Shown: positions 5,230 through 63,579 of the stretch, one piece after another
How positions within the stretch are numbered: position 1 is the stretch's first letter
How the letters are laid out: each line of letters opens with the position of its first letter
Assembly (NCBI GenBank): GCA_023129165.1
Contig: JAGMCL010000111.1
Coordinates: forward strand, 201 to 64,200
Length of the DNA stretch: 64,000 bases
From: a candidate division WOR-3 bacterium
GTDB taxonomy: Bacteria; Hydrothermota; UBA3073
Direction: 5' to 3'
Position numbers and translations under genes: made by a program
The notes under the pieces: model-generated
The model's input: only the letters and a program-made list of their open reading frames with translations
The model's database searches: none
What the model was told of the DNA's origin: nothing

Positions 5230-6357
5230 ATGTTTACAAGGATTATTTTCTTATCAGGATTAATTTTTTTGAGCCTTGCGGGCTATACAAAAGGAAATGA
5301 GGCTATCTTCCCTGACCTGACCGGACAGGAACTTCTTGATAGCCTGATATACTATTATAAAACAGATACAGTATTACCTTACAGCATAGCAAGAGATACG
5401 TTATTTGCAAATGTTTACCAACATAACGATAGCTTAACGTGTGTATACTCCGGATATACAATCTATTTAGACCCACAAGAAGACCCGACACAAGATGCCT
5501 ATAGTAAGGGCATTGACACTGAACACACATGGCCTCAGAGCAAAGGTTCAGTTGGTCAGGCTAAGAGTGATATGTTTCACCTGTATCCAACCAGAGTAGT
5601 GGTTAATTCTTCCAGAGGAAATGACCCCTTTGCTGAAATCCCTGATCCAGATACGGATAAATGGTTTCGTCTGGATTATTATTTAACTACCATTCCTACA
5701 GAGTTTATCGACGAGTACAGTGAAAAGGATGAAGATGCGAATCTATTTGAACCGCGTGAAGATCATAAGGGGAATGTAGCTCGTGCTATGTTTTATTTCT
5801 ATACTATGTATAAGCGGCAGGCTGACAGCCTTGATCCAGAATATTTCGGGTTACAAAAGGATGTATTATACCAATGGCATCTTACTGATACAGTTGATTC
5901 AATGGAACGGATTAGAAATGATTTGATTGCATCTTATCAGGGAGATAAAAAAAATCCCTATATTTTAGATTCTTCACTTGTCAGACGGGCATATTTTTAT
6001 GAATCTACAGTGGTAACAGGTGATTATAAATTGCTTACAAATGACATAATATTAGAACAGAATTATCCAAATCCATTCAGTACAGAGACAGTTATTACTT
6101 TGGAGTGCATCAACATGGTTGATGCAGCTGTGACATGGTCACAGCACTCCATAAATATCTACGACCTCACTGGTCGACTCATCCGCACCATCCCTCTTAA
6201 TCTGTGTAATCCCAATAAATCCGTGCAATCTGTGATTTGGGATGGGAGAGATAACTCTGGAGAGAATGTTCCCGGTGGAGTATATTTTTATAGACTTAAC
6301 ATTGATGGAGATAACAATAGATTTACACAGACAAAGACGATGATACTATTAAGATAA
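5230..6357 (+). CDS. extracellular endonuclease I family nuclease with T9SS C-terminal sorting domain
   Basis: Endonuclease I motifs (TEHTWPQSKG, DMFHLYPTRVVVNSSRGNDPF), signal peptide, and a C-terminal PNPF ... IYDLTGRLI ... GVYFYRL Por_Secre_tail. Confidence 0.7.
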   Translation: MFTRIIFLSGLIFLSLAGYTKGNEAIFPDLTGQELLDSLIYYYKTDTVLPYSIARDTLFANVYQHNDSLTCVYSGYTIYLDPQEDPTQDAYSKGIDTEHTWPQSKGSVGQAKSDMFHLYPTRVVVNSSRGNDPFAEIPDPDTDKWFRLDYYLTTIPTEFIDEYSEKDEDANLFEPREDHKGNVARAMFYFYTMYKRQADSLDPEYFGLQKDVLYQWHLTDTVDSMERIRNDLIASYQGDKKNPYILDSSLVRRAYFYESTVVTGDYKLLTNDIILEQNYPNPFSTETVITLECINMVDAAVTWSQHSINIYDLTGRLIRTIPLNLCNPNKSVQSVIWDGRDNSGENVPGGVYFYRLNIDGDNNRFTQTKTMILLR

Positions 6358-6394
6358 TGTTATTCAGATATATGATAGTTTTTTATCTTTTTTC

Positions 6395-6423
6395 TTGACT
6401 TTTAGCACATTTTGAATTATAAT
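6395..6423 (+). promoter_or_regulatory. sigma70-like promoter, TTGACT-17-TATAAT
   Basis: Motifs at 6395-6400 and 6418-6423, followed by a leader of about 230 nt before the 6657 gene. Confidence 0.4.
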
Positions 6424-6656
6424 AAATATACATACATCTGAATTGTAGTAATAGAATAATACCTCGAGATTGCTTCGATAATTGTAGTACTCCACATAGC
6501 ATTCCAACCAGAAATAAGAGTGGCTTCAATAAGATAAAATTAATAAACCGCATATAGATAATCAGATTATAGTTCTCCAACTCTTATTCCTTCAGTGTTG
6601 TATGTCCTAATTCAACAAACTTCAAAATAGATAAATTCATTGAAAATTTATAAGAT

Positions 6657-8678
6657 ATGAAAAAGCTAATCGAGATACTTTGTGTAATTTTGCTTACAAG
6701 TAGCAATTTAATAGGGAATATTTACGCAAAATCCCAAGAAGTATATCTATTACCATCTCAACAGGGTGAACCGAGTAAAGTGATGTCTGTAGATAGGCTT
6801 TCAGCACATTCGCTAATACAGTATGATTGTGGAGAAAGTAGTCATTACCTAACTGATATCCTTCCTTGTGATACTATCGGGGTATTATTTGTTCCACCTT
6901 TCCCCTGCTCTCTTATTGAAGTTCATTTCTGTAGATATAAAAGGTTTGAGAATACACCCGACATATATTATGGTATTGTTGCTGATGTTCCTGATAGTGT
7001 AATACCTGAATCTTATGGGGAGTATCGTGATTCTACATCTATACCTGGTCCAAGCCCAATAGGTAATTTTTACCTGAGACCTGCTGCTATGGAGTTACCA
7101 TACACAGTAGGTTTTCACTGGGATACTCTCGTTATTCCAGGACAGCCAAATATAGACCAAAAGCTATTCTGGGCTGGGTATACAATTGAAGACACCTGCC
7201 ATTCAACGAGGGTAGATTTAAATGTTCCTCCTCCCTTTCATGCAATATGCTGGAGGCAAAGTGGTGCAGGACCCGAAACTAATGGTCCAGGATGGTATTC
7301 TTCATCTGATCTCTTCTGGATACGAGCACTTGTTAAATTCTATGGTCAGAACTATACTGGGGTTTCTGTTGAGAAATTAAAGAGTACATACGATACTCAC
7401 GATAGAATTGTTCATATCTATTCCTGGGATTACAATGAAGATTCGGCTGGTGTAGGATTTTATCCAGATTCAGCATTTCTATATTATTCTATAAATGAAT
7501 GTAATACTTTTAGAGTATCTCTTATACAAGATTCTGTTTATAACCCTGATCCATATTCCGAAGATGCCTGGTGGCATGCTATTATTCCTGGTCAGAGACC
7601 AGAGGTAAAAGTTACTTATTGGGTAGAACTTAAGTATAGAAGTGAGCTAAGACCTATATACATAACCCGATCATACTGGTATAAAGTAAAAAGAGGTAGA
7701 GATGACAATGGTCTCCTATACATTGAGGGTGATGAGGTTTGGGGTGGTGATGTGCACAATGCATTTGTAGGTCTACCCTGGGACATATGGTATGAAGCAG
7801 TTGATGGTGTTCCCGATAATACAGTGACAGATTTCTATGCCTTCGGTCCTGGTGGGCGGGCAATTTCCTGGCTTTCTTTAGCCGGAGTTACCTTTGCCAA
7901 TCCGTATGAGCCTGGTTGGTCTCATACTCAAGTGTTTAGGGACTTTATGGATTGTGGTAGTACTTTATTAGTCTCGGGTCAGGATATACCAGGTGGCGGC
8001 TATGGTCTCGGTTATGGCGACTGGGTCGCACCCCCATCACCACACCCGTTGAGGGATTATCTGAAGGCACACGCAGGAATAGACGATTACTTACTAACAT
8101 CTCCTTTCTTGGTCTTCGTCGATGCAACAGATGTGGTTACGATAGGCATGTCCGAAGAGATAACCATTGACTGTGGCTCTGTTATGCAGCCTACCCGGGT
8201 TGGAATATTCACAGACCTCGATCCCGCTTGTGTGCCTCTGTTCTTTGATGGTGAGGGCAATATTCTTGGATACAGGTATGAGTCAGCAAAGGGCTTTAGG
8301 GTTGTATTGCTCTACTTTCCCTTTCATGCAATAACAGATACGGATGAACAAGATATATTTATTGAAAACATAACTAACTGGTTTCCAGTGGGAGTGGAGA
8401 AAGAACCAGATGAATTCATATACGACCTTCCCATGGTCAGCCCGAATCCAATTTCAAGACCTACTATGATAAACTTCACCATGCCTAAAAACGAGCATGT
8501 ATCAATTAAAATATACGATGTAACAGGTTCGTTTATTAAAACACTTGCAAATGAAAGATTTAACGCAGGAAATCATACTCTTAAAATAAACACAGATGAA
8601 CTTATATCAGGTGTCTATTTCCTTAAAATGGATGTAGGTGAGTTTTCAGAAGTGAGGAAGTTTTTGGTTGTAAAATAG
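6657..8678 (+). CDS. secreted T9SS cargo protein, function unknown
   Basis: Signal peptide and a C-terminal CTD (SPNPISRPT ... IKIYDVTGSFI ... GVYFLKM). It shares an SGQDI-containing segment with the 48283 giant. Confidence 0.6.
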   Translation: MKKLIEILCVILLTSSNLIGNIYAKSQEVYLLPSQQGEPSKVMSVDRLSAHSLIQYDCGESSHYLTDILPCDTIGVLFVPPFPCSLIEVHFCRYKRFENTPDIYYGIVADVPDSVIPESYGEYRDSTSIPGPSPIGNFYLRPAAMELPYTVGFHWDTLVIPGQPNIDQKLFWAGYTIEDTCHSTRVDLNVPPPFHAICWRQSGAGPETNGPGWYSSSDLFWIRALVKFYGQNYTGVSVEKLKSTYDTHDRIVHIYSWDYNEDSAGVGFYPDSAFLYYSINECNTFRVSLIQDSVYNPDPYSEDAWWHAIIPGQRPEVKVTYWVELKYRSELRPIYITRSYWYKVKRGRDDNGLLYIEGDEVWGGDVHNAFVGLPWDIWYEAVDGVPDNTVTDFYAFGPGGRAISWLSLAGVTFANPYEPGWSHTQVFRDFMDCGSTLLVSGQDIPGGGYGLGYGDWVAPPSPHPLRDYLKAHAGIDDYLLTSPFLVFVDATDVVTIGMSEEITIDCGSVMQPTRVGIFTDLDPACVPLFFDGEGNILGYRYESAKGFRVVLLYFPFHAITDTDEQDIFIENITNWFPVGVEKEPDEFIYDLPMVSPNPISRPTMINFTMPKNEHVSIKIYDVTGSFIKTLANERFNAGNHTLKINTDELISGVYFLKMDVGEFSEVRKFLVVK

Positions 8679-15548: not shown

Positions 15549-15700
15549 GTCCTGCCTGACGGTAGGTAGGCAAGAGATTACTTGACGCCTTTCCTGCCTG
15601 TCGGCCAGACAGGTAATTATTATCACAGCATATACGCTGCGGGCTTCGCCCTTGACCTTCGGGACATGCTCCCTTCGGTCACAGGTCGTATATCATGGAA
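15549..15700. repeat. cluster of REP-like GC-rich palindromes
   Basis: CCTGCCTGACGGTAGGTAGGCAAG, CCTGCCTGTCGGCCAGACAGG, and CCTTCGG direct repeats. Confidence 0.6.
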
Positions 15701-18443: not shown

Positions 18444-19064
18444 TTAATTGGTTGATTAGTTGAATAGTTGAATGTTACATATGAAATGTTTGATGTGATG
18501 GTAGGAGCGACTTCCTAGTCGCGATAGAGGGAAGAGCGTCCCAGTGGAATAGTTGACACATTCCACAGGATAAATAGGGCGTAATGCGAAGAGCGTAGGG
18601 AGTAGGGCGATTGATGATTGACGAATGACGATTGAAGATTAGGGACATGTTAAAGGGTAAAAGGCAAATGGCAAATGTAATTAATTGTGGATTTCGGATT
18701 GCGAATTAGGGAAATGTTAAATATTTAATAGGATAAGAGTTAATTAGTTGAATATTAGATGTTACATGTTGAATGTTTAATGTTGAATGGGAAATTGACG
18801 ATTGGCGATTGAAGATTACGAATTTATAATTTCCATTTGAAAATTGGCTTGATCCTTTAACCATATTACTTTTTTACCTTTACCTTTTACTTTTTACTTT
18901 TACCTTTTTACTTATCTAATGACTCAATGACCCTAAGACTCTATTTATAAACCCAATGAACCCAATAAACTAAACAAACCAGACAAACTAAATAAACTAA
19001 ACAAACCAAATAAACTCAATAAACTCAACAAACCGTGTAAACTCAATAAACTAATTTTACTTTT
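18444..19064. repeat. 600-bp low-complexity word-repeat spacer
   Basis: Runs of ttgaatgtt, gattgaagatta, ttttacctttt and aaataaactaaacaaacc-type 9-mers. GTAGGAGCGACTTCCTAGTCGCGATA at 18507-18532 recurs at 20229-20254. Confidence 0.6.
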
Positions 19065-20150: not shown

Positions 20151-20615
20151 TTAAAGGGGAAAGAATATTTCAAACTACAGAGGACACAGAGGAAAATAAA
20201 CAATGTAAAATGTTGAATGTTAAATGTTTAATGTAGGAGCGACTTCCTAGTCGCGATAAATTCCCATAAGGGTTAATCGGGGTTAGGAAACCCCTCCTAC
20301 AAAAAGGGAGGGTAGGAGCCCCGCCTTTGGCGGGGGAATAAGAGAAGAGAGATGAGGAATTAAAGCAAACTGACATCTGTGGTTTATACTTGCATAGCAA
20401 TATTAAAAGATGGGATAAAGAGATTATTTTATAGAGGTCACAGAGGGGAGGAATAAAAATCTTTTATAATCTCTTGATACTAAAGATTCTCTGTGGTTCC
20501 CCTATTAAATAAAGTACCAGAAGCGATGACTTGTACTTAATTTTGTAACTATTTAACAGGGTGAATCTGTGGTTAGATTTTTGACAATAGTCTACAAAAT
20601 TAAAGGGGTAAGAAT

Positions 20616-23994: not shown

Positions 23995-24023
23995 TTGACA
24001 ATCGTCGAAAAATGTGGTATAAT
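23995..24023 (+). promoter_or_regulatory. sigma70-like promoter, TTGACA-17-TATAAT, for gyrB
   Basis: Exact consensus hexamers. Confidence 0.5.
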
Positions 24024-24060
24024 AATGCATGTAAGATATATACAAATTTTATATTAAAAA

Positions 24061-24240
24061 GATTCTGTGAAAAATGATATGAATGAATATATCCGAAGGG
24101 TTCGCATGGAAAAGAACAAGTATCGAAGTTCGTGATGTATTTTTCCAGTCTCGAGCTTCCAGTTTCGAGTTTCGTTACGAGTTTCCATACCGATAAACTA
24201 GTTTCGATAATATTGGTTTTGTGAAGCACTATAATAAGTA
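24061..24240 (+). repeat. degenerate copy F of the leader-associated repeat family
   Basis: CTGTGAAAAATGATATGAATGAATATA ... AGGGTTCG matches the left end of copies A-E. Lies between the gyrB promoter and its start codon. Confidence 0.35.
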
Positions 24241-30534: not shown

Positions 30535-31092
30535 TTATTCATAGTGTAGATAAATAGAAAACTTCTCAATACCCTTTCGAACGCCATCTGTAACTGCTCT
30601 TGATGATATAGTTGCTGCAGTAATGGCATCTATTGTGCCGCCATATGATTTCAATCGAATTTCCTCTAATTTTTTACACCTAAACTGGTCTAGAAAAAAT
30701 GCCTCAGTAATCTTCACACCAAGTCCAGGTGTCTCCTTCAGTCCTTCAGAAGGAGTTGCAGGTCTTATCGTTACTATAGTTGTATCAGTGGCTAAACCCA
30801 CGAGTGTCTCGATTGGTCCACCATATCCCTTTGGAAAGACCTTGAACAATATCCCAATTCGGTTCCCTGTAGAATCCAGAGCTGCCCAGAGTGTATCTTT
30901 AAGCAATGTATCTCCTTCAACTATATAATACGAGAAAGAGTGGGCTATAGGAAAAACTTCACGAAGTTGTTCGTCTAATTTTTCCTCGATACCTTCTTCA
31001 ATTATTGGTGTCGTGACAGTATATACATATGATAGAAGCGCTGCTGATGCCAGACATACAATTAGTAGTGATAAAATCATTTTAAGCTTCAT
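30535..31092 (-). CDS. FMN-binding domain protein (RnfG/NqrC-like)
   Basis: N-terminal TM helix and the covalent-FMN motif GGTIDAITAATISSRAV. Confidence 0.65.
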   Translation of the reverse strand: MKLKMILSLLIVCLASAALLSYVYTVTTPIIEEGIEEKLDEQLREVFPIAHSFSYYIVEGDTLLKDTLWAALDSTGNRIGILFKVFPKGYGGPIETLVGLATDTTIVTIRPATPSEGLKETPGLGVKITEAFFLDQFRCKKLEEIRLKSYGGTIDAITAATISSRAVTDGVRKGIEKFSIYLHYE

Positions 31093-31439: not shown

Positions 31440-31900
31440 CAAATTTTCTATATTTTGAGCAACTTAATTATACTTCTATTTTCTTGTAGATATATAGTAT
31501 CTTTGAAATATGTCTTAACTGTAATTTATTATACATCAAATATAGGAATTTGTCAACTGATTTTTTATTAAAAATTGGGTTTATTAACGTTAAAATTCTA
31601 TCTGTTTCTTATGTGATTCTTTCTTGGCAAAAGATGCAGAATAACAAAATACATATGGATTCATAGGTTGTTATAAATAGGTTGTTATAAATATGTAAAG
31701 AGTAAGAATTCAAGACGATTTAATCGTATCTGCCTGTTGGCAGATATAATATATCAACTAAATTGAAGAAGAACTGAATTTTTAAATATATAGATGGTAG
31801 ATATAAAAGGTGAAAGAGAAGATTATGGGTGATACTATGTAATATTTTTAATAAGTATTTACTTTTGGGGGGCACATCATAGTGCCCCCCAATTTTGTCT

Positions 31901-37626: not shown

Positions 37627-37905
37627 TTCTTGACTTTATCCAAACTCCCAAATACGAGATTGCGAAGTTTATTCTGAGCAATAGCGAGGAATCTTCCTCA
37701 GAGAAGAAATCTAATTTTTACTTCGTTGAGATTCTATGGTAGGAGCAGGTTTCTACCTGCGATTATAGGTCGCAACCAGGAGGTTGTTCCTACCTTCAGA
37801 AGATATATTATGTAAAAGAGCAATAGGAACTTTATAAAGGAGTGACAGTGTTTACTTAGTAGTTTAATGTCTAAAGTCTTATGTCTTTTATCTGGATATT
37901 TTACT

Positions 37906-38940
37906 CTATTTAATAGTCGTCTGATGGATACTGATCAAGTCGTTTAGAAGTGAAAACCCGGTTTCTATACGACCTGCGCCTGGTCCAGATATAGTAACAC
38001 AATCAAGAGCATCAGTCTTGAATACAATTGCATTATTAACTCCAGAGATATGGAATAGAATATCACTCTCTTCAACCTTTTCTGGTGAAACACGTGCATT
38101 TACTTTTCCATTCTTCTTACATGCCCTGGCAATTAGTTTATACCTTTTATTTTCTCTTTTTGCCTGCTGGATATCAGATTGAGTAATGTTAGTAATACCC
38201 TTTCTTTCTACATCAGAGACCTTTATATCAGCACCCATCACCACATTTGAGAGTATGACAATCTTTGCAAGGGCGTCCCAACCCTCAACGTCGGCATCAG
38301 GCTTTGTTTCAGCATAACCAAGGCGTTGTGCTTCCTTAAGAACCTCAGCGTAGTTCCTACCTTCATCCATCTTAGTGAATATATAATTTGTAGTACCGTT
38401 GACTATCCCTCTTATCTCAGTGATATCTGCACCAGCAAGAGTGGAAAGGCTCAAATTTAGTGCAGGTGTACCGCTCAGCACAGTTCCTTCAAATTTAAGA
38501 ATCTTGTTATTTTCTGTTGCAAGTTTATTGAGCTCTCTATAATGAAGTGCTATTGGCCCCTTATTAGTGGTTATCACATGTTTACCTTCCTGTAATGCTG
38601 TTCTTATAAATGTAGTTCCCGGGTCTCCAGTATCAAGATTAGTTGGTGTGATCTCTGCGATTATATCTGCACCAGTTTCTTTTATTGTCTTCAAACTATC
38701 CCATCCCTTATTGCCACTTGAATAACCATTGATATTACCATCCTTCTTTACAAGTGATAATATCTCCAGCAAATCGAGACCTTCATCATGGTATACACTT
38801 CCCTTTACTGGATCAGATATCGCCACAACTTCATACTCCAGGGTGTATTTATTCTTCAGGTAAGTTCTCTTTTCTCTAAGAAGTTCTACAAAGCCCTGAC
38901 CAACAGTGCCCAATCCAATTATAGCAATTCTAAAACTCAT
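37906..38940 (-). CDS. hom: homoserine dehydrogenase
   Basis: NAD-binding RIAIIGLGTVG and the catalytic region GIVNGTTNYI. Start moved to ATG 38940, which follows GGAGG. Confidence 0.8.
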   Translation of the reverse strand: MSFRIAIIGLGTVGQGFVELLREKRTYLKNKYTLEYEVVAISDPVKGSVYHDEGLDLLEILSLVKKDGNINGYSSGNKGWDSLKTIKETGADIIAEITPTNLDTGDPGTTFIRTALQEGKHVITTNKGPIALHYRELNKLATENNKILKFEGTVLSGTPALNLSLSTLAGADITEIRGIVNGTTNYIFTKMDEGRNYAEVLKEAQRLGYAETKPDADVEGWDALAKIVILSNVVMGADIKVSDVERKGITNITQSDIQQAKRENKRYKLIARACKKNGKVNARVSPEKVEESDILFHISGVNNAIVFKTDALDCVTISGPGAGRIETGFSLLNDLISIHQTTIK

Positions 38941-40240: not shown

Positions 40241-41148
40241 ATTAACCTCTTTTCATTCAGTACATTTTTCAGAATCTCTCTCTTTGGTTGGCTCAATCTT
40301 GTGAGAGGTAACCGAAGTCCACCTGCAGGTAGTCTCATTAAATTCAAAGCCTCCTTACAGGCCATAGGATTTGTCTCCATCCTGAGGGCTTCAAATAAGT
40401 TGTAGTATTTATAATGGAGTTCCCTTGCTTTATCTATTTCTCCTGTGAGACTATATTCGGTTATATTCTTCATAACGTCGGGTATGACATTGCCGGCAAC
40501 AGTAAATACACCCTTTCCACCAAATGAAAGTAGGGGATAGGCAGTTACGTCCTTTCCTGTAAATACATCGAAATCATTATTCTCTGTCAGGTATACAACC
40601 TTGGACAAGTGTCTCATATCACAGTTTCCATCTTTAGTAGCAATTATATTGGGATGCTCAGCCAATTTAGCTGTTCCTTCAGGCGAGAGATTCCTTAAGA
40701 CCCTTCCTGGTGAGTTATGCATTATAATAGGAATTTTCGACTCATCAGCAACATGCTTATAGAAGGAGATAATACCTTCCTCTGTAGGTAAAATCAGGTA
40801 AGGAACATATACGGCAGCATAATCACATCCAAGATCATAAAATAATTTAACTCTTTCAAGAGTTTTTTCCAGACCCATTGTACAGGTGTCAGGAATAACT
40901 TTTGTTTTGCCGTTTACTTCTTTAATTATAATTTCTATCACTCTTATTATTTCCTGATAAGATAGTAGTGTATTTTCACCGGTAACTCCAAGTGGTGCAA
41001 TTCCATGAATCCCTGCTTCTATTTGCCTTTTTACAAGTATCCGAAGTCCTTTTTCATCTAAAGATAAGTTTTCATCGAATGGTGTGATAAGTAATGTGTA
41101 GGCACCTGAAATCATAAAACCTCCTATCGTTTGTCTAAGTATTGTCAA
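40237..41148 (-). CDS. DapA/NAL-family lyase (4-hydroxy-tetrahydrodipicolinate synthase-like)
   Basis: DHDPS-family TIM-barrel pattern. Overlaps thrB by 4 nt. Confidence 0.7.
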   Translation of the reverse strand: MTILRQTIGGFMISGAYTLLITPFDENLSLDEKGLRILVKRQIEAGIHGIAPLGVTGENTLLSYQEIIRVIEIIIKEVNGKTKVIPDTCTMGLEKTLERVKLFYDLGCDYAAVYVPYLILPTEEGIISFYKHVADESKIPIIMHNSPGRVLRNLSPEGTAKLAEHPNIIATKDGNCDMRHLSKVVYLTENNDFDVFTGKDVTAYPLLSFGGKGVFTVAGNVIPDVMKNITEYSLTGEIDKARELHYKYYNLFEALRMETNPMACKEALNLMRLPAGGLRLPLTRLSQPKREILKNVLNEKRLI

Positions 41149-41184: not shown

Positions 41185-41326
41185 TTATAATTATCAATTA
41201 TTTACTTAACTCCCCCTGATTCTTGTAGGGGTCGGATTCATCCGACCCGTTTCTTTTGCAGGTTCGATAAATCGAACCCCTACATTTTTGATTTCATATT
41301 CTTTCATATTCTATTTGACACTACCG
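41185..41326 (-). repeat. copy E (short) of the leader-associated repeat family
   Basis: CGGTAGTGTCAAATAGAATATGAAAGAATATGAAAT, GGGTTCGATTTATCGAACC, GGGTCGGATGAATCCGACCC and CCCCTACAAGAAT. Intercistronic, co-oriented with the dapA-like gene. Confidence 0.75.
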
Positions 41327-42387: not shown

Positions 42388-43104
42388 TTATGGGATACCT
42401 GATTTATTAGGAAGATATTCTTCTGGATTTAATATACTGTCATTATAGTATATTTCATAATGAAGATGAGGTCCAGAGGATATACCACTTGAACCAACAA
42501 ATGCAACCACATCTCCTCTGTTTACTTTTTCACCATCCTTTACAGTGATAGATGAGTTGTGCCCGTATACGATTTTATATCCTTCCTTATTGCATATTTC
42601 TAATACACTGCCTAGTAGTGAATCAGTCCATATTGCATTTACATATCCACTTATGGTTGAAACTATTTGTGTACCAATTGGTGCTGCAATATCTATTGCC
42701 TTATGGTAGGGAGTAAATCCCTGACTTATCCACCCATGTGTAGGCCAAATTGCAGGTATATAGCCTTCCTGGTTGTTTCCCTGTGTATAGACCGGTGATG
42801 TATCTTCTATACCCAACAGTGTTAGTAATCGCTGGTTTTCATACACCAAGCGATTTAAGTCTGCTATTATCTTATCTATTGTTTCGTTTTTCTCTTTTTG
42901 AAGGAATTCTATGTTTTCTTCTAGTTTATTTGCTTTTTTAGCAAGATTGTAAATACTCACATACTTATATCCCAGGAATGCTACAACTCCAATAATAACA
43001 AAAAGGAGGACTAAAAGAAGTATAGCCACACCTTTGGGAATAACTATCCTTTTTACATCTCCTTCCTCGTCAGGGATGAACATAAGTGATATCTTTTTTG
43101 CCAT
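42388..43104 (-). CDS. M23-family peptidoglycan endopeptidase with N-terminal coiled coil (EnvC-like)
   Basis: HKAIDIA ... GHNSS ... GSSGISSGPHLHYEI. Confidence 0.75.
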   Translation of the reverse strand: MAKKISLMFIPDEEGDVKRIVIPKGVAILLLVLLFVIIGVVAFLGYKYVSIYNLAKKANKLEENIEFLQKEKNETIDKIIADLNRLVYENQRLLTLLGIEDTSPVYTQGNNQEGYIPAIWPTHGWISQGFTPYHKAIDIAAPIGTQIVSTISGYVNAIWTDSLLGSVLEICNKEGYKIVYGHNSSITVKDGEKVNRGDVVAFVGSSGISSGPHLHYEIYYNDSILNPEEYLPNKSGIP

Positions 43105-43232
43105 ATTCGTATAATGTTGAGTTTTTCAGGTTTAAATAAAGAGGCAATATTATTATTTGATAATTATACACTAAAGCAATAAAATTGTCAAGGAAAAAAT
43201 GAGGTTTGGGTTCATATATGTGAGAATTTTCC

Positions 43233-43261
43233 TTGACAACTCGGTAGATTTGGATTATAAT
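43233..43261 (+). promoter_or_regulatory. sigma70-like promoter, TTGACA-17-TATAAT
   Basis: The -10 ends 20 nt before repeat copy A begins, so the element would form the start of the 5' UTR. Confidence 0.5.
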
Positions 43262-43280
43262 GTTATATAAGTTTTATTTT

Positions 43281-43660
43281 TGATACTGTGAAAAATAATA
43301 TGAAAGAATATGAAAGCTAAAATGTAGGGGTTCGATTTATCGAACCCGCAAATAAACCCCCTTCTGAAAGGAATTATTATGAGCATGTAATCAGGAATGA
43401 GAAAGCCTTACATAATATTCATAGGTATATAGAGGACAATACGTTAGTAGAGAGAATAAGATTTGAAGAATTCTATAGAAACGGGTCGGATACCCGTCGG
43501 GCAGGAATCCGACCCCTACAAAAATCAGGGTTGGATGAATCCGACCCCTACAAGAATTAGGGAGAGGAAAGAAAAAAATTGATAATTACTTTAAAAACTA
43601 TAGGTTATTCGTTAGCTAACGAATTACGATAAATTAGATAAGATATTTTTCACACTACCG
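43281..43660 (+). repeat. copy A of the leader-associated repeat family, with extra module and tandem CCCCTACAA duplication
   Basis: TIRs ACTGTGAAAAATA and TATTTTTCACACTACCG. Hairpins GGGTTCGATTTATCGAACCC, GGGTCGGAT ... ATCCGACCC and CCCCTACAAGAATTAGGG. Ends 16 nt before the ATG at 43677. Confidence 0.85.
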
Positions 43661-43676
43661 TATTTTTCATCAGGGG

Positions 43677-45260
43677 GTGGCAATGAAGAATATATTTGTT
43701 TTTGTGCTTTTGGGAACTTTTATATTAGTTTCCTCTCTGATGTTTGCGTCGGAACTCTATGTCAGTTTTGACAACTTCTATCCCATTTTTACGTCAGAAA
43801 TCTATGTCAGTTATGAGTTGTACCCTCGTAAACCCTATCCAGAGTCTTATCCCAAGAATGATGAGATTTCCCTGAGAATTAGAGGTATAAACAAACATCT
43901 TGCAGGGATTGTATCTGATACAATAACTGATATGCTCTGGAACCCAGCAAGACTACCCTCAAAGAGTTTCATCTCTTTTCGGGTTCCAAACAGAATAGTC
44001 ACCTCGCTTCCGGGTCCCTTAAAAACGAGATTGGGAATATTATTAGAAGGAAGTTACTCTGAATCGGAGAATAAGTACAGAGAGAAAGAGCCTTCTTACT
44101 ATTATTGGGACTATCATTATACTGATTATTTAAATAGTCACAGCAGTAGTCATTCAGGCAATACATACAAGGGGGTACTCCTTGGGTCAAAGCAGGTTAA
44201 TCCTAATACCTGCATTGGATTAAGATTAGATTACTCCTTGAAGCCTAATACAAGCAGTGATGACTGGATATATAGATATACCCGTGAAAGGAACTATGAT
44301 AGCTATGAGCGGTTAGATAGTAGAGATGATATTAGAGAATACAACGGTGCAGACACTACATCTTCCTGGTCTCTTGGCATCGGCATACTCTCTTCAATCC
44401 GTAAATCAGATGTGGAAATTGTCCTTATGTACAGAAATCAAAAGGAGCTGGGTCACTTTCTTGACAGCAGGAGAGAGAATGGATATGGAGAATACATTCG
44501 CACATACGATAGCACAACATATACAGATATCCACAACTTTGAATCCGAAAGACTGGCAGAGGAATATGATTTTCTCAATCCCCAGATATGGAGTCTGGGG
44601 ATGAGATTGTCCAGGGATATAACCCCTACCTCAACATTTAGGACAATAGCTACTCTCTATAAAGGATATGGAGATGCACAGAGAGAGAGAAAAAATCTAA
44701 GGTACTATTATGAAGACCGTTATTACAGCTACTCAGATCCTGACACCTTCTATGCCCATGGTGATACATCTGAATCCTATCAGGAAGATGAGAGTGTGCT
44801 TGAGGGTGATGCAAATATTCTCGGTGGTCTTCTCGCCCTGGGGCAGGAATTTAGTGTTTCCCCCAAACTCTCTGGGGGGGTTGGAATCAGAATCTCCTAC
44901 GAGAAAAGTGAGGTTAAACTCACAGGAACAAGGGATGAGGTTTATGATACCCTGACCTCGCATTCCGCAATAGAAGAGAAGAGCATTGGAAGAAAAACCT
45001 ATGTCTATCTTCCCATGGGCATTGAATACAGACCTATACCAGAAATCGCTGTAAGATTTGGGATTAGCATCTATGGCTTTCATCATCTCCTGGAAGAGAA
45101 TACCAGCGAAGGCTACAGCAAATCAAAATATACAAACGGTCCCTATTATAACATCAGTTTTGGTGCCGGTTATAACTGGAAGAGATTTAAGTTTGATATC
45201 TATACAATGGATGTTGCAGCAATTAAGTCGTGGGAAATTGAATTATGCTACAGTTTGTGA
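43677..45260 (+). CDS. secreted protein, possible outer-membrane beta-barrel, function unknown
   Basis: Signal peptide, Tyr/Asp/Ser-rich composition, and alternating-hydrophobicity C-terminal strands. Confidence 0.45.
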   Translation: MAMKNIFVFVLLGTFILVSSLMFASELYVSFDNFYPIFTSEIYVSYELYPRKPYPESYPKNDEISLRIRGINKHLAGIVSDTITDMLWNPARLPSKSFISFRVPNRIVTSLPGPLKTRLGILLEGSYSESENKYREKEPSYYYWDYHYTDYLNSHSSSHSGNTYKGVLLGSKQVNPNTCIGLRLDYSLKPNTSSDDWIYRYTRERNYDSYERLDSRDDIREYNGADTTSSWSLGIGILSSIRKSDVEIVLMYRNQKELGHFLDSRRENGYGEYIRTYDSTTYTDIHNFESERLAEEYDFLNPQIWSLGMRLSRDITPTSTFRTIATLYKGYGDAQRERKNLRYYYEDRYYSYSDPDTFYAHGDTSESYQEDESVLEGDANILGGLLALGQEFSVSPKLSGGVGIRISYEKSEVKLTGTRDEVYDTLTSHSAIEEKSIGRKTYVYLPMGIEYRPIPEIAVRFGISIYGFHHLLEENTSEGYSKSKYTNGPYYNISFGAGYNWKRFKFDIYTMDVAAIKSWEIELCYSL

Positions 45261-45507
45261 TACTGTGAAAAATAATACGAAAGAATATGAAAGCAAAAAT
45301 GTAGGGGTTCGATTTATCGAACCCGCAAAAGAAACGGGTCTGATACCCGTCCGACGCCTGCCTGACGGTAGGCAGGGCAGACGGGAATCCAACCCCTACA
45401 AGAATTAGGGGAAGGCAAGCAAAAAATTGATAATTACTTTAAAAACTGCAAATTGTTAGTTAGCTAACGAATTATAAGAAATTAGTTAAAATATTTTTCA
45501 CATTGCC
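45258..45507 (+). repeat. copy B of the leader-associated repeat family, containing an embedded REP
   Basis: Starts at the upstream gene's stop codon. Has TIRs, the three hairpins and CCTGCCTGACGGTAGGCAGG. Ends 23 nt before the ATG at 45531. Confidence 0.85.
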
Positions 45508-45530
45508 CATCACCATAAACAGGAGGTATT

Positions 45531-47714
45531 ATGAGGAGGTTATGGGTTGTACTGGCACTTGTGATAGGGGTATCTGCCTATGCCCAGCAGGAGATAACGC
45601 TTGTAGATGAGTTGTTTGAGGCGGGAGAGTTCAGGGATATTGTTATCATTGATAACTATCTCCTCACCCCAAATATCAAGGGACTGGCAATATATGATAT
45701 ATCAAATCCATCATTTCCAGTCCATATAAATACCATAAATACACCGGGGTGTGCCGAAAATCTGGTGGTGAAGGATGATTATCTCTATCTATTTGATATT
45801 GGCAATGGGATAATACTGTTTGATATAACAGACCCCTCTTCTCCATCTATCCTCGATAAATTTCATTTCTATAATGGAATGTCTCTTTATTACCCTCACC
45901 ACACAGTGGAGATTTATGGTAATATGCTCTACTACCCTGATTATGTGAATTACAATGCGTATCTTAAGGTTCTTGACATCACCAATCCTCTTAGTCCTGT
46001 TCCAAGAGATAGTATTCAAATTCCTAACTATTCCTATGACCTTCAAGTAAACTATCCGTACTGTTATATGAGCGACAACACTCAAAGCATATATATTCTT
46101 AATTTATCTGACCCTGATTCTATTTGTGTAGTAGATACCATTTCCCTTGGGGGCGTGGGCTTGGGTATGACAACAGTGGGTAACTATCTCTATGTTGGAA
46201 CTGATTATTCCTATGGTGTGGAGGTTTTTGACATCACAAATCCGGTGTCTCCTGATAGTGCTGGATACTTTCTTGACGAATGGTATCCCTACTATTCCTT
46301 TGTTGGACTGGATAGTATCCTCTATGGCTACCGCCACGGTGGCAGGCTTGCTGTATTCGACATATCGAACCCACCTGAAATAGATACCCTCGGATTGGCT
46401 CCTTTTTCATATGGTGGGGGTGGGGGTTGTATGTTCAGGGAAGACACCCTCCTTGCTATGACAGCCAGCCGTTCTACAGCCTCGGGAAATTATTATGGAA
46501 TGGGCATTATAGGAATTTCTGACCCAATTTCTCCCAATAACCTCTCTTACACCATTACCGATAAGGGACCTATTCAATTTGTAAAAACCACGGGAAATAA
46601 TTTGATTATGGCAAATCCTGGAGAGATATATTGTTACGGTATACAAAATCCCGCATCTCCATATCTTCTGTCAGATTACAATCCTTCTCCTTGCAATGTC
46701 TATAAGCTGGCAGTTGATTCAAACTATGTATATTATGTGAGCTCCTGGCATTACAGCCTGGGGGCACTCAGTCTGCTCGACCTCTCTCTTGCAGGTTCAT
46801 TTTCAACACAACAGTATCTCTTTGATATTGTTGCCTCAAACGGCTATGTCTATGGGGTGAGGGATACCGTCAGGGTATTTCAAATGATGGGTGACAGTCT
46901 TCAGCAGTTAGGGGTCTATCAAGATTGTGTAAACACGATACATCTCTTTGTTAGAGATACCCTCCTGTTTTTCTATGACTATGACTCGGCATTGTTTAAT
47001 ATATTAAATGTGTCCAACCCGTCTTCTCCGACGCTTGCAGGGGAACTTGACCCGGAGAGAAATCTCTGGTACTCTCCAATTTTCGTGGATGGTGATTATG
47101 GATATTTCCTGTATGGAGATAGCCTTCTTGTCTATCATTTTGGAAGCAACTTTTCATCAATGGATTTTGCGGGCTCTTTGTTTCTTGATAATTATGTAGA
47201 GGGTGGTGATATTGCGGTGCAGGATACATTTATGTATATCGCCGGAAATAAATATCTCACAATACTCAAAACCACAACCCCGGATTCGCCTGTTCTGGTA
47301 GACAGATATAATACATCGGGAATTCCTGAAGGGGTTGCTCCCTATGGAGATTATGTATATGTGGCTGATAACACATCTCTTGGTATATATCACTTCCAGG
47401 CTACAGGAATTGAAGAGGAGTCCGTTCGGGGTGAAGGAGTCATAAACCTTGCCGTTACACCCAATCCAGCGAGTGGATTCTTTACCATCTCGTATTCAAT
47501 TCCAGAAAAATGTAAGGTCAGGATAGGTATCTACGATATCACAGGCAGGCTCGTCAGGTCTTTCCCAATTAACCAATCAACCAATCAACTAATTAACTGT
47601 ATTACCTGGAAGGGTGAAGATGACAGGGGTAAAAAGGTCTCTCAGGGAATATACTTCTGTTTGATGGAGACGGAAGGTGCGAAGATAAGTCGTAAGATGA
47701 TTGTGATAAAGTAA
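45531..47714 (+). CDS. LVIVD-repeat beta-propeller protein with T9SS CTD
   Basis: Repeats of the type YLY ... DIxNP/DPSSP. Signal peptide. CTD is VTPNPASGF ... IGIYDITGRLV ... GIYFCLM. Confidence 0.7.
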   Translation: MRRLWVVLALVIGVSAYAQQEITLVDELFEAGEFRDIVIIDNYLLTPNIKGLAIYDISNPSFPVHINTINTPGCAENLVVKDDYLYLFDIGNGIILFDITDPSSPSILDKFHFYNGMSLYYPHHTVEIYGNMLYYPDYVNYNAYLKVLDITNPLSPVPRDSIQIPNYSYDLQVNYPYCYMSDNTQSIYILNLSDPDSICVVDTISLGGVGLGMTTVGNYLYVGTDYSYGVEVFDITNPVSPDSAGYFLDEWYPYYSFVGLDSILYGYRHGGRLAVFDISNPPEIDTLGLAPFSYGGGGGCMFREDTLLAMTASRSTASGNYYGMGIIGISDPISPNNLSYTITDKGPIQFVKTTGNNLIMANPGEIYCYGIQNPASPYLLSDYNPSPCNVYKLAVDSNYVYYVSSWHYSLGALSLLDLSLAGSFSTQQYLFDIVASNGYVYGVRDTVRVFQMMGDSLQQLGVYQDCVNTIHLFVRDTLLFFYDYDSALFNILNVSNPSSPTLAGELDPERNLWYSPIFVDGDYGYFLYGDSLLVYHFGSNFSSMDFAGSLFLDNYVEGGDIAVQDTFMYIAGNKYLTILKTTTPDSPVLVDRYNTSGIPEGVAPYGDYVYVADNTSLGIYHFQATGIEEESVRGEGVINLAVTPNPASGFFTISYSIPEKCKVRIGIYDITGRLVRSFPINQSTNQLINCITWKGEDDRGKKVSQGIYFCLMETEGAKISRKMIVIK

Positions 47715-47929
47715 AGAGCATGACTTCGGACAACGGTAGGGACAGGGCTCGTCCCTGTCGAGTAATGGAGTGATATAGGGCAGGAGTATTGGGATATCTG
47801 GAGTGCATTAGCTTGCTAATGTAAAGGGTAGAGTGAGTTTGTTATAGATTACAGATTGTAGATATTAGATAGGGAGGTTGTTGACACCTGATTCAATTTT
47901 ACCTGATTTCTTCAGAGGGGTACTGAATC

Positions 47930-48003
47930 GTAGGGCAAGGCTTAAGCCTTGCAAAAGCAAACCTAAAGCCTGCCTGCCGGTAGGCAGGGTTTGCCCTACA
48001 TTA
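47930..48003 (+). repeat. compound REP-like palindromic element, upstream copy
   Basis: GTAGGGCAA ... GGCTTAAGCC ... CCTGCCTGCCGGTAGGCAGG ... TTGCCCTAC. An approximately 90% identical copy in inverted orientation lies at 53443-53512. Confidence 0.7.
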
Positions 48004-48282
48004 ATAGGTTAATAAAAGCTTCATGATTGCCCTGCTTACAAACAGGTGTCAAGCAAGTCAACATTGTTACCTGTAACATAATAATTTATGTTCCTCCTGG
48101 GCTTATATGATACTATTTCAATTCGTGCTTGCACGGTTAAAAACCGCGACTGCCGTCAGGCAGGCGTGCCTACATTTTAAGTAGGCCGTGTTTGTAGGCA
48201 CGAATTCAATTCGTGCTTGCTATCAAACTTGGTCACCCTTCAGTGTGACCATTATGCAAACTTTATTGACCTGGAGGTGATT

Positions 48283-53442: not shown

Positions 53443-53512
53443 TGTAGGGCAAACCCTGCCTACCGGCAGGCAGGCTTCAGGTTTGCTTTTACGCAAGGGT
53501 TAAGCTCTTACC
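53443..53512 (-). repeat. compound REP-like palindromic element, downstream inverted copy
   Basis: Reverse complement matches 47930-48003. Confidence 0.7.
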
Positions 53513-62091: not shown

Positions 62092-62397
62092 TATTTTCCT
62101 TGAATCTAATTATATGATCACCCACCATTCTAACTCCTTAATATTTACTAACTTAAGCTTGCCTTGTAATTCATATTTAGATTTTGGTGATACAAAAACA
62201 CTCTATTGATTTTTATTCAACTTGTATTCTTGATTGCAGATACACATTATTATCATTGCACTCTATAAATGATTATTGTAGATACACTACCTACCATCAG
62301 GCAAGTTATCCTTGCGAAAAGAGAGAAGGTAAGATCGCAAACTGCTCTTTGTCGCATACTCTGTGAGTGGTTAGTTTTTTGGCAATACTAAATCTTA

Positions 62398-62632
62398 GAT
62401 ACTATGAAAAATAATATGAAAGAATATGAAAGCGAAAATGTAGGGGTTCGATTTATCGAACCCGTAAAAGAAACTGGTCGGATACACGTCTGCCCTGCCT
62501 ACCGGCAGGCAGGCGTCGGGCAGGAATACGACCCGTACAAGAATTAGGGGAAGGCAAGTAAAAAATTGATAATTATCTTAAAAACTGTAGGTTATGAGAA
62601 GTTAGTTGAGATATTTTTGGCAATACTAAACC
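62398..62632 (+). repeat. copy C of the leader-associated repeat family, containing a REP
   Basis: Hairpins and CCTGCCTACCGGCAGGCAGG are present. Flanked by direct repeats TTTTTGGCAATACTAAA at 62375-62391 and 62614-62630. Ends 18 nt before the ATG at 62650. Confidence 0.8.
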
Positions 62633-62649
62633 TTAAACAAGAAGAAAAA

Positions 62650-63579
62650 ATGAATAGAATCCTGGTATTTCTAACTATATTAATTATTGCAGGATGCTCG
62701 ACTAAAAAAGATGTGAAACCATTGGCTGATTTTGATGCACTCTGGGATTACAATAATCCTGAGCAGACTGAAATCAAATTTCGGGAATTGATATCTATAG
62801 CAAAACAATCAGGTAACCTATCTTATTATGCCCAATTGTTGACACAAATAGCAAGGACACAAGGATTGCAGTATAAGTATGAGGATGCTCATCAAACACT
62901 TGATAGTGTTGAAACCATATTAACGGATGATTTAATTCTTGCAAGAATAAGATTTCTTCTTGAAAGAGGAAGGGTGTATAATTCTTCAAATTACCCGGAT
63001 AAAGCTAAAACACTCTTTTTAGAAGCATGGAAAATCGCAGATGCGAATAAAAAAGACTTCTATGCAATTGATGCAATACATATGTTGCAAATTGTTGAAC
63101 CACCAGAAAAACAGATAGAGTGGGCTAATAAAGCAATAGAACTGGCTGAAAAATCGACTGACCAGCGAGCAAAAAATTGGTTAGGTCCTTTGTACAACAA
63201 TACTGGTTGGACCTATCACGATTTGAAAGAATATGATAAGGCATTAGAGATATTTAAAAAGTTATTAAAATTGCGAGAGGAGAGTAATAATGTATATTCT
63301 ATAATAATCGCTAAATGGTGTATTGCAAGAACTTATCGATCACTCGGCAGAATAGATGAAGCCCTTGATATCCAGAGTGCATTAGAAAAAGAAATTGAAG
63401 AAGGGTTTGAACCCGATGGTTATGTGTTTGAGGAATTAGGGGAGTGTTTATTGTTATTGGGAGAAAAGGAAGAAGCACAAAAATATTTCAAACTTGCATA
63501 CGATATACTTTCAAAAGACGAGTGGTTAGTAAGAAATGAACATGAAAGATTGGAAAGATTAAAAGAGCTTGGAAAGTGA
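62650..63579 (+). CDS. TPR-repeat lipoprotein
   Basis: Start moved to ATG 62650, giving MNRILVFLTILIIAGCS with a lipobox. The ORF-track start at 62566 lies inside the repeat. Tetratricopeptide-like helical repeats. Confidence 0.55.
   Translation: MNRILVFLTILIIAGCSTKKDVKPLADFDALWDYNNPEQTEIKFRELISIAKQSGNLSYYAQLLTQIARTQGLQYKYEDAHQTLDSVETILTDDLILARIRFLLERGRVYNSSNYPDKAKTLFLEAWKIADANKKDFYAIDAIHMLQIVEPPEKQIEWANKAIELAEKSTDQRAKNWLGPLYNNTGWTYHDLKEYDKALEIFKKLLKLREESNNVYSIIIAKWCIARTYRSLGRIDEALDIQSALEKEIEEGFEPDGYVFEELGECLLLLGEKEEAQKYFKLAYDILSKDEWLVRNEHERLERLKELGK

Follow-up and report, generated by a model that had tools for sequence, protein, structure and literature searches.

The 64,000-nucleotide stretch of contig JAGMCL010000111.1 analysed here, called the window throughout, carries a family of short repeats that are bounded by terminal inverted repeats (TIRs) and lie in the leaders of genes. 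They are very probably miniature inverted-repeat transposable elements (MITEs), the non-autonomous derivatives of an ISHco2-like insertion sequence (IS) from the long zinc-finger branch of the IS6 family, with insertion targeted to the Shine-Dalgarno (SD) sequence.

A preliminary description, made from the DNA alone, had listed six copies, A to F. The six places were read and aligned, and every copy was compared with the window by blastn. Copies A to E were recovered, their shared modules being 84-97% identical (E-values 1e-20 to 1e-69), and the alignment bore out the fixed order of modules, the three hairpins and the optional CCTGCC...GGCAGG palindrome in the loop of hairpin 2. Copy F did not hold up beyond about 30 nt of the 5' end, and copies G and H and a solo 3' end had been missed. 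The window, which has a G+C content of 37.4% and yielded zero tRNAs in a tRNA scan, thus contains seven copies at the least, namely A, B, C, D, E, G and H, together with two end-remnants. The list below gives them with their target site duplications (TSDs) and downstream genes; IRL and IRR stand for the inverted repeat on the left and the one on the right.

43282-43659, plus strand: copy A, MITE of 378 bp; TSD TTATTTTT (43274-43281) and GTATTTTT (43660-43667); SD AGGGGG at 43672-43677; ATG at 43683 of a 525-amino-acid protein without a Pfam match
45259-45507, plus strand: copy B, MITE of 249 bp without a TSD, with its first two bases falling within the stop codon (45258-45260) of the gene upstream; SD AGGAGG at 45521-45526; ATG at 45531 of an LVIVD / Por_Secre_tail protein
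62398-62627, plus strand: copy C, MITE of 230 bp; TSD AAATCTTA and AAACCTTA; ATG at 62650 of a TPR protein
31440-31115, minus strand: copy D, MITE of 326 bp in which the 5' module and hairpin 1 are duplicated internally; perfect TSD GAAAATTT (31448-31441 and 31114-31107); ATG at 31092 of an FMN_bind protein
41325-41138, minus strand: copy E, MITE of 188 bp with a minimal interior; 3' inverted repeat at 41151-41138; TSD (T)AGATAAAC and (T)AGACAAAC; SD AGGAGG at 41125-41120; ATG at 41115 of DHDPS/dapA
39288-38963, minus strand: copy G, MITE of 326 bp with the same termini and a different interior (CCACAGAGGTCACAGAG ... CTCTGTGCTCTCTGTGG modules); TSD GAATATTA and GAAGATTA; SD at 38950-38945; ATG at 38940 of homoserine dehydrogenase (hom)
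about 20160-20591, plus strand: copy H, G-type, 5'-truncated and without the 5' inverted repeat; 3' end TTTTTGACAATAGT; AGGGGT at 20604; ATG at 20616 of polyprenyl synthetase
62359-62389, plus strand: solo 3' (IRL-type) end of an older G-type copy, directly upstream of copy C
24061-24095, plus strand: copy F of the preliminary description, about 30 nt resembling the 5' (IRR-type) end, in the gyrB leader

All seven copies have the same orientation as the next gene, as had been stated, and the distance from the end of the element to the start codon, put earlier at 16-25 nt, narrows to 22-24 nt (22 nt for C, D, E and G, 23 nt for A and B, and 24 nt for H). The genes that follow are unrelated to one another, again as described: dapA, hom and genes for a polyprenyl synthetase, a TPR protein, an FMN_bind protein and a protein of the type IX secretion system. 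The elements measure 188-432 bp, and their longest internal ATG-initiated open reading frame (ORF) has 68 amino acids. Some limits had to be redrawn. Copy E is longer than first given, since its 3' inverted repeat lies at 41151-41138, and the optional module reported for copies A and D is, in D, partly the internal duplication listed above. The CGTTAGCTAACG palindrome occurs in copies A and B only. In copy G, the first 34 nt are those of copy A and the last 16 nt form a TIR2-like end (TIR2 being the earlier name of the 3' repeat), by blastn and by reading; copy H turned up in a census of 3' ends. Copy F resembles the 5' end at 87-90% identity (E about 1e-5) with no recognisable 3' end and, going by its letters, would at best be the solo-end remnant of an element.

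A probable IS6-type parent

When metagenome contigs were scanned with a degenerate pattern based on the 5' module, at least 120 stretches matched. In most of these the motif comes after GGTACTGTC or GGTAGTGTC, with unrelated DNA upstream, so that the boundary is sharp, and many run on into about 1.8 kb that encode a protein of about 483 amino acids on the opposite strand. This IS terminates in ...AAATTAGTAAATTATTTTTGACATTACT, the counterpart of the TIR2 region. Its inverted repeats are IRR, GGTACTGTCAAAAATA, and IRL, AGTAATGTCAAAAATA; the far inverted repeat, GACATTACT, differs from GACAGTACC. The MITEs, whose TIRs are 14-16 bp long, retain about 35-45 bp of the transposase-distal end (IRR, which is the TIR1 of the preliminary description plus GAATATGAAA repeats) and, from the transposase-proximal end (IRL, the TIR2 region), about 30-40 bp; they have lost the gene for the transposase. 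Their 5' ends are 85-97% identical to those of the IS over 32-38 nt, and their 3' ends 76-82% over 28-43 nt.

The transposase matches the Pfam domain DDE_Tnp_IS240 (PF13610) with 42.3 bits against a cutoff of 27 and has at least 3978 homologues (E <= 1e-10), of which one, 80% identical, is labelled "IS6 family transposase ISHco2" by NCBI. Its best NCBIfam match, transpos_IS6, reaches 63 bits and stays below the cutoff of 125, so the transposase represents a divergent branch. The inverted repeat GGTACTGTCAAAAA agrees with the IS6 family motif GG..cTGTt..caaa, and an 8-bp TSD is the rule in this family (PMC7986276). In the long IS6 clades the outermost bases of the inverted repeats are not always complementary, according to Harmer and Hall (PMC6807381). 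ISHco2, ISTet2 and ISHahy6 belong to the "long" IS6 clade VIII/i, whose members are 1.7-1.76 kb long, make 8-bp duplications and encode a zinc finger plus a further N-terminal extension; experimental data on the clade are lacking, and the status of a separate family has been suggested as possible (PMC6807381, PMC7986276). The DDE_Tnp_IS240 domain, the N-terminal CxxC zinc-finger extension and the length of about 1.8 kb are the points of likeness with this clade. The window elements differ from the long clades in that all are derivatives without a gene, 188-432 bp long, and all carry foreign inserts of the repetitive extragenic palindromic (REP) type. The family reviews record only two MITEs for the whole of IS6 (PMC6807381, PMC7986276).

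No homologue of the transposase was found by tblastn in the window or in three loci of the related WOR-3 species. Since the ends match those of the IS, no ORF exceeds 68 amino acids and the window holds no transposase, the copies are MITEs. One of the two readings offered in the preliminary description, a MITE that prefers leaders, is thereby upheld by the TIRs with their 8-bp TSDs and by ends shared with an autonomous IS6-like IS.

In the genome collection, the species that carries the same elements is a candidate-division WOR-3 bacterium, and an identical copy of a window gene is present in the metagenome-assembled genome GCA_030628885.1. Empty sites were sought through identical proteins in other assemblies; one protein had no entry on record and the other led back to the same strain with the same insertion. 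The contigs with identical proteins have the same insertions throughout, and loci L001-L003 (L numbers denote loci outside the window) all carry copy B. Contigs of metagenomes and metagenome-assembled genomes often end in or beside elements (L002 1-443; L261 1-509; many of L116-L235), so gene starts at contig edges are systematically affected. The G-type MITEs (39262-38963 on the minus strand and 20160-20591 of the window; L094 4666-4885; L121, L124, L129, L218) consist of inverted modules of the form CCACAGAGGTCACAGAG ... CTCTGTGYTCTCTGTGG. Palindromes such as CCTGCCTRCCGGYAGGCAGG have repeatedly been inserted into these modules, and the nesting takes some copies to 620 bp.

A fixed distance from the Shine-Dalgarno sequence

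Complete elements were collected by requiring that the 8 bases in front of the 5' inverted repeat recur behind a 3' inverted repeat. The search returned 22 of them, some being MITEs of 117-622 bp and others IS of about 1.8 kb, and one match that was judged spurious. The TSD is perfect (8/8) in 13 of the 22 and 7/8 in most of the others; in the window, copy D has 8/8 and copies A, C, E and G have 7/8. In almost all of the 22, the start codon lies 22-24 nt past the 3' (IRL-type) end.

Insertion is oriented and locked to the SD, with the IRL end 12 bp upstream of (A)GGAGG. An independent census, keyed solely on the 3' inverted-repeat motif, gave 26 unique ends, and the GGAGG core was found at offset 13 in 14 of them and at offsets 9-15 in 23. 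When the empty sites were reconstructed, the sole conserved feature was (A)GGAGG, which occupies +12 to +17 counted from the first base of the duplicated octamer; the octamer itself is merely AT-rich. The set was then pooled to 51 distinct junctions from loci gathered without any SD-related criterion; it includes MITEs, full-length IS from Atribacterota-type contigs, and ISCpe7-like elements and longer relatives from plasmids of Clostridium, Geobacillus, Pediococcus and Levilactobacillus. An SD-like core stands 11-14 nt past the IRL end at 46 of the 51 junctions. At 40 of them an SD core at 11-14 is combined with an ATG at 22-27, against a background of 0.4% at AT-rich positions of the window (binomial P about 2e-85, a nominal value since the junctions are not fully independent). 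As a control, flanks lying outward of the opposite end gave 0/87. Classical IS26, with 40 unique flanks, gave an SD-like core in two, which is about background, and SD plus ATG in none.

The rule holds for elements of very different content. Full-length copies carrying one Atribacterota-type transposase precede at least seven different genes, and the neighbour is always divergent, 158 nt from the transposase start. As full-length IS and G-type MITEs occupy the same position and orientation as the other copies, the position is a property of transposition and not of the hairpins. A relative with 61% identity (L246) follows the same position rule. Seven relatives of about 35% identity (Geobacillus, Pediococcus, Levilactobacillus and Clostridium estertheticum plasmids) have perfect 8-bp duplications in six cases and an ATG at +23 or +24 in six, the seventh having its SD at +11 and its ATG at +30. 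Four ISCpe7-like members of clade VII, about 1.27 kb long and 27% identical, come from plasmids of C. perfringens and C. botulinum. All four have perfect duplications and AGGAG, AGGGGG or AGGAGG at +11/+12, and three have an ATG at +25 to +27. This clade, also called "h" and including ISCpe7 and ISCbo1, shares with the IS the DDE_Tnp_IS240 domain, the CxxC zinc finger, the GG-tipped CTGT...AAA inverted repeats and the 8-bp TSD. Where the spacing from SD to ATG varies, the distance to the SD does not, which makes the SD, or a G-rich tract over +11 to +14, the better candidate for the determinant. Among the transposases compared, the targeting is confined to those with the N-terminal zinc-finger extension.

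At the Atribacterota-type loci L238 and L242, a full-length IS lies 12 bp upstream of the rplV SD, followed by the genes for S3, L16, L29, S17 and L14. The two loci differ in their far flanks, which means that at least one contig is chimeric. Provided that the rplV insertion is genuine, expression of essential genes passes through an IS or comes out of it.

Duplicated and re-used targets

On the Firmicute plasmids, 10 of the 11 copies with definable ends have a perfect TSD; two loci had their inverted repeats resolved by hand, and L252 and L255 were left out of the counts. Matching TSDs are absent from copy B, L094b and L248. Copies A and B, as direct repeats, flank one gene. Along with the tandem re-use of targets described below, these are only indirect hints of the replicative cointegrate mechanism, without a resolvase, of the IS6 family. 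In copy B and in L094b (6700-6704), the gene upstream has its TGA stop codon completed by the first bases of the element, the GA of GATACTG; neither copy has a TSD.

Some targets have been used more than once. The solo end at 62359-62389 abuts the same 8-bp target that copy C used, and tandem re-use is seen at copy C and at L169. Repeated use of one 8-bp target was noted at L169 4595-6480, at 62359-62635 of the window (the solo IRL end and then copy C) and at L135 5590-5640; L169 has a full IS and a 30-nt solo end with three GTAAAAGR copies between them. Such re-use suggests either repeated insertion at one SD or IS6-type events beside a resident end. In eight metagenome loci (L117, L130, L144, L152, L181, L199, L223, L227), solo IRR-type ends of 30-75 nt are joined directly to the SD of a gene. 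The L181 junction has 7-8 bp of microhomology (ATAAATT) between the interior of the IS and the target duplication, as expected of a deletion.

Passengers inside the elements

The hairpins belong to something else. Hairpins 1 and 2 are nested units of the GTAG type, of the class of REPs that go with REP-associated tyrosine transposases (RAYTs), and are unrelated to the MITE. Hairpin 2 plus CCCCTAC is the inverted partner unit of hairpin 1. The two kinds are as follows.

43324-43347, plus strand: example of REP unit 1 (GTAGGGGTTCGATTTATCGAACCC, hairpin 1 of the preliminary description), nested in copy A; also at 45301-45324, 62440-62463, 31398 (minus) and 41283 (minus), with a variant (GTACGGG...) at about 31302 (minus)
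41225-41248, plus strand: example of REP unit 2 (GTAGGGGTCGGATTCATCCGACCC on the opposite strand; hairpin 2 + CCCCTAC), inverted relative to unit 1

A scan of one genome per species for GGGTTCGATTTATCGAACC, the 19-mer at the core of hairpin 1, found it in more than 112 stretches. Among the matches listed (L004-L115), the hosts span more than 10 phyla and include Omnitrophota, Atribacterota, Auribacterota, Desulfobacterales, Planctomycetia, Ignavibacteria, Chloroflexota and others; GTAG precedes the core in 104 of 123 instances, and an inverted partner ending in CCCCTAC follows within 120 nt in 66 of 123. The stems of the partners vary (CTTG, TCGG, CGCG and so on) yet are complementary in 8/8 around the GATTYATC centre, and the usual form is a doublet of GTAGGGG-N4-GATTYATC-N4'-CCC units. 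Outside WOR-3, the REP doublets occur without TIRs or GAATATGAAA repeats.

A RAYT gene flanked by inverted REPs is a hallmark of REP/RAYT systems. At L069 (Omnitrophota), 6228-6879 holds an ORF of 143 amino acids that matches Y1_Tnp and is RAYT-like (29.3 bits, cutoff 23). On its upstream side stands GTAGGGGTCGGATTTATCCGACCC and on its downstream side GGGTTCGATAAATCGAACCCCTAC, a pair of inverted units of the kinds represented by hairpins 1 and 2; the window itself showed no RAYT. REPs are usually lineage-specific, and one exact 19-mer across many phyla is, to our knowledge, unusual. Its breadth could reflect the horizontal spread of RAYT/REP systems among anaerobic bacteria of sediment and groundwater. 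A literature search for the REP strings returned no papers.

The passengers of the elements are two inverted GTAG-type REP units, the CCTGCC...GGCAGG palindrome or "CACAGAG" modules. The palindrome CCTGCCTRCCGGYAGGCAGG, the optional insert in the loop of hairpin 2, was also seen at 15551-15610, 47930-48000, 48130-48216 and 53444-53486 of the window, both standing alone and nested in other GTAG units (GTAGGGCAAACC...GGTTTGC), and the intergenic region at 47.7-48.2 kb is a dense stack of repeats. About 10 further GTAG-plus-hairpin units lie in the window outside the elements. Other families of this kind were noted at 18501-18522, 20233-20254, 20300-20279 (minus), 20312-20335, 37739-37760, 47736-47759 and 48194-48216; one unit, GTAGGAGCGACTTCCTAGTCGC, occurs twice, and many REP classes are apparently present in the genome.

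Possible transcription through the elements

Promoters of the sigma-70 type with perfect 12/12 TTGACA-17-TATAAT boxes number four in the window.

43233-43261, plus strand: promoter upstream of copy A, found by the scan
43163-43191, minus strand: promoter
31528-31556, minus strand: promoter
23996-24024, plus strand: promoter

The preliminary description had placed such promoters near copies A and F, which agrees with the scan for A and with sequence reading for F; the scan adds one for D. Two of the four form a divergent pair in the intergenic region 42388-43683. The promoter at 43233-43261 would put copy A in a 5' untranslated region (UTR) of about 410 nt. In the predicted fold of copy B as RNA, the TIRs are paired and the SD is free (minimum free energy (MFE) -72.6 kcal/mol, z = -4.6), and GTAGGGG of unit 1 pairs with CCCCTAC of unit 2 in a long stem like that of a REPIN (REP doublet forming hairpins). 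The REP hairpins are terminator-like on the antisense strand only. Co-transcription of the elements into the 5' UTR with a closing TIR stem, as had been proposed, is plausible as a by-product of insertion.

A consensus promoter scan found no outward promoter near the IRL end of the IS, and TTGATA-N16-TAGGTT inside the A-D-type MITEs was not detected by it. The inverted repeat of clade VIII has TTGACA exactly 17 bp from the SD; this is unexplained and probably coincidental, because the ISCpe7-like inverted repeats lack TTGACA. Readings of the TIRs as sigma-54 promoters, Bacteroidetes-type promoters or CRP sites were rejected by eye, as the motifs did not fit.

How insertion may be directed

A transposase encoded elsewhere, now or formerly, would move the MITEs in trans, and insertion generates the 8-bp duplication. 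The IRL end is placed 12 bp upstream of (A)GGAGG and 22-24 bp before the start codon, always on the side of the gene. The CxxC-rich N-terminal zinc-finger extension may read GGAGG on double-stranded DNA and may position an asymmetric transpososome so that IRL faces the SD; this role is assigned to it because it is the only architectural feature common to both targeting clades and absent from IS26. By analogy with a proposal for TnGBS/ISLre2 (PMC3942029), the orientation may arise because IRL and IRR differ.

After insertion, the gene would retain its own SD and be transcribed through the element from its native promoter, with the element joining the 5' UTR. Such read-through is suggested by the promoters 20-90 nt upstream of copies A and D, by the antisense-only resemblance of the REP hairpins to terminators and by the lack of strong sense-strand terminators in the IS. 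In the RNA, the modelled pairing of the TIRs would close the element and leave the SD free, a by-product expected of inverted repeats.

Two observations touch on the extension. Residues 125-158 of the transposase (P0003), in its zinc-finger region, have a weak sequence match in the Protein Data Bank (E = 0.043) to an HVO_2753-like small zinc-finger protein (9fhl_C and seven further entries), which is probably generic CxxC similarity. One transposase homologue is labelled [quoted passage not shown] by JGI.

Alternatives and reservations

The other reading in the preliminary description was a functional cis-regulatory leader RNA, closed by the TIRs around three hairpins and selected for mRNA stability, processing (e.g., by RNase III) or translation. 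The consensus promoters 20-90 nt upstream of A and D (and that of F by reading), the fold of copy B with its free SD, the terminator-like character of the hairpins solely on the antisense strand and the apparent keeping of one insertion in two species (copy G and L094b) are what one would expect of it. It is nevertheless quite improbable. The 1.8-kb full-length IS and the G-type MITEs, which lack all three hairpins, take the same position and orientation, and the hairpins are a REP class of many phyla and contexts. No covarying base pairs, which had been suggested as a test, were found: the hairpins are invariant among copies, the copies being too alike for covariation, and such stem variation as exists lies between REP subfamilies. 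Rfam gave 0 matches for the whole window at gathering thresholds and, for 43200-45600 at E up to 1, only noise at E about 0.4-0.5. The downstream genes, moreover, are unrelated. A different kind of selection can be imagined, in which insertion into AT-rich intergenic DNA is near random and the copies that survive are those with an intact SD and either read-through or a hybrid promoter. IS6 elements commonly make hybrid promoters with the -35 box in the inverted repeat (PMC7986276), the clade VIII repeat has its TTGACA 17 bp from the SD, and in the opposite orientation transcription would be stopped by the REP hairpins. This account is improbable too, as a distribution that is sharp to the nucleotide (offset 13 in 14/26; 11-14 in 46/51) is not expected of selection by tolerance. 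AGGAGG is not a -10 element, the ISCpe7-like repeats without TTGACA still have AGGAGG or AGGGGG at +11/+12 in 4/4, and IS26, which does form hybrid promoters, scored 0/40. The plasmid copies of cultured Firmicutes, presumably recent insertions given their perfect TSDs, keep the rule as well.

Mobility of another sort would be at work if the whole composite were a unit like a REPIN or a bacterial interspersed mosaic element (BIME), which a RAYT (Y1 transposase) would spread by way of the GTAG hairpins, with the TIRs incidental. The inverted GTAG-REP doublet formed by hairpins 1 and 2, the REPIN-like stem in the fold of copy B and the RAYT-like gene of L069 between the same units fit this idea, which is nonetheless highly unlikely: the 8-bp TSDs sit exactly at the outer edge of the TIRs, a DDE-type IS has matching TIRs and subterminal sequences, G-type copies have the same ends without the REP doublet, and in other phyla the doublet occurs without TIRs. 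Hardly credible is a reading of the elements as invertons, with the TIRs as recombination sites of an invertase that switches promoters of surface-protein genes. Inverted repeats of 14-16 bp do surround 150-400 bp directly upstream of genes, and some of these genes encode secreted or lipoproteins. The internal orientation, however, is the same in every copy (window, related species, metagenomes), and both orientations at one locus were not seen in L001-L003 and L261; 8-bp direct repeats flank the inverted repeats, the ends are those of a transposase-bearing IS, and many targets are housekeeping genes.

SD-targeted MITEs of an ISHco2-like IS therefore remain the favoured identity, and several points weigh against it. 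Copy B and L094b have no TSDs. At five of the 51 junctions no SD-like core stands where it is expected, 11 fail the strict combination of SD and ATG, and selection after insertion may account for part of the sharpness of the distribution. Recognition of GGAGG by the zinc finger is a correlation of domain architecture with behaviour alone; the N-terminal 295 residues of the transposase have no significant Pfam match, and its AlphaFold2 model is poor (pLDDT 57, pTM 0.29). Some metagenome contigs across the IS are clearly chimeric (L238 versus L242). The lack of an autonomous copy in the window and the three loci of the related species leaves current mobility in this host unproven. The insertion of copy G, apparently shared with the related species, is probably old. 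Its 3' flank and that of the insertion at L094 6702-7315 in that species are near-identical, and the two are probably one and the same site.

Place among known systems

The closest parallel in behaviour is the TnGBS / ISLre2 / ISKra4 group, in which insertion by a DDE transposase likewise keeps a set distance from a gene-expression signal and a set orientation, and spares genes, and in which the orientation of TnGBS / ISLre2 has been attributed to the asymmetry of the two inverted repeats (PMC3942029). The elements behave like this group but are not members of it. Its transposases are of the Mutator-like superfamily and act 15-17 bp upstream of the sigma-A -35 box, whereas here the transposase is IS6-like and the signal is the SD, at 12 bp and inside the transcribed leader. 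The short IS6 elements IS26 and IS257 are alike in the 8-bp TSD, the GG...CTGT inverted repeats and the outward -35 box in the inverted repeat; they have no zinc-finger extension, and IS26 shows no SD/ATG association in its 40 unique flanks.

Correia elements (CREE/NEMIS) of Neisseria and similar MITEs that reside in leaders are small, TIR-bounded and often co-transcribed, and their paired TIRs can make an RNA stem, which in Neisseria is processed by RNase III. Correia elements duplicate TA and are not known to keep a fixed distance to the SD, unlike the SD-locked window elements with their 8-bp TSD. With REP/BIME/REPIN units and their RAYTs, the elements have in common GTAG plus a short GC-rich palindrome and the inverted doublets; here these units are passengers in a DDE-type MITE.

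The IS6 reviews mention no target specificity for the long zinc-finger clades (PMC6807381, PMC7986276). Skarin et al. (2011) wrote of ISCbo1 copies that they were "in most cases ... located directly upstream a gene", with direct repeats of 8-9 bp (PMC3098183). A full-text literature search for SD-directed insertion and for the IS names found nothing beyond this remark on ISCbo1, with subscription journals and ISfinder notes outside its reach, so that an earlier description is possible. To the authors' knowledge, the rule that insertion takes place in one orientation, 12 bp upstream of the SD, is undescribed, and the ISCbo1 remark is the only hint of it.

What the finding means

On balance, though by no great measure, it seems that the zinc-finger IS6 branches (ISHco2/ISTet2-like and ISCpe7/ISCbo1-like) are the first described bacterial transposons that home to translation-initiation regions, with the SD read on DNA. 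If this is true, the elements and their MITE offspring embed themselves in 5' UTRs without destroying genes, and seven gene leaders within the 64-kb WOR-3 window received an element by SD homing. The rule would extend from uncultured phyla to Clostridium, Geobacillus and lactobacilli, where it is directly testable.

A repeat that annotators could easily take for a regulatory RNA is given a concrete identity, and a whole branch of DDE transposases, including IS of C. perfringens and C. botulinum plasmids and of food lactobacilli, gains an apparently uncharacterised target rule. The reading of 5' UTRs, operon maps and assemblies is affected, since contigs break at these repeats exactly at gene starts. 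SD targeting would also account for these IS sitting inside operons, and it would point to a small DNA-reading zinc-finger module, possibly one that could be re-used for targeted insertion. Transposons seldom pick their sites by a gene-expression signal, and an SD-directed case would be a second "safe-site" strategy beside the promoter-directed one of TnGBS/ISLre2.

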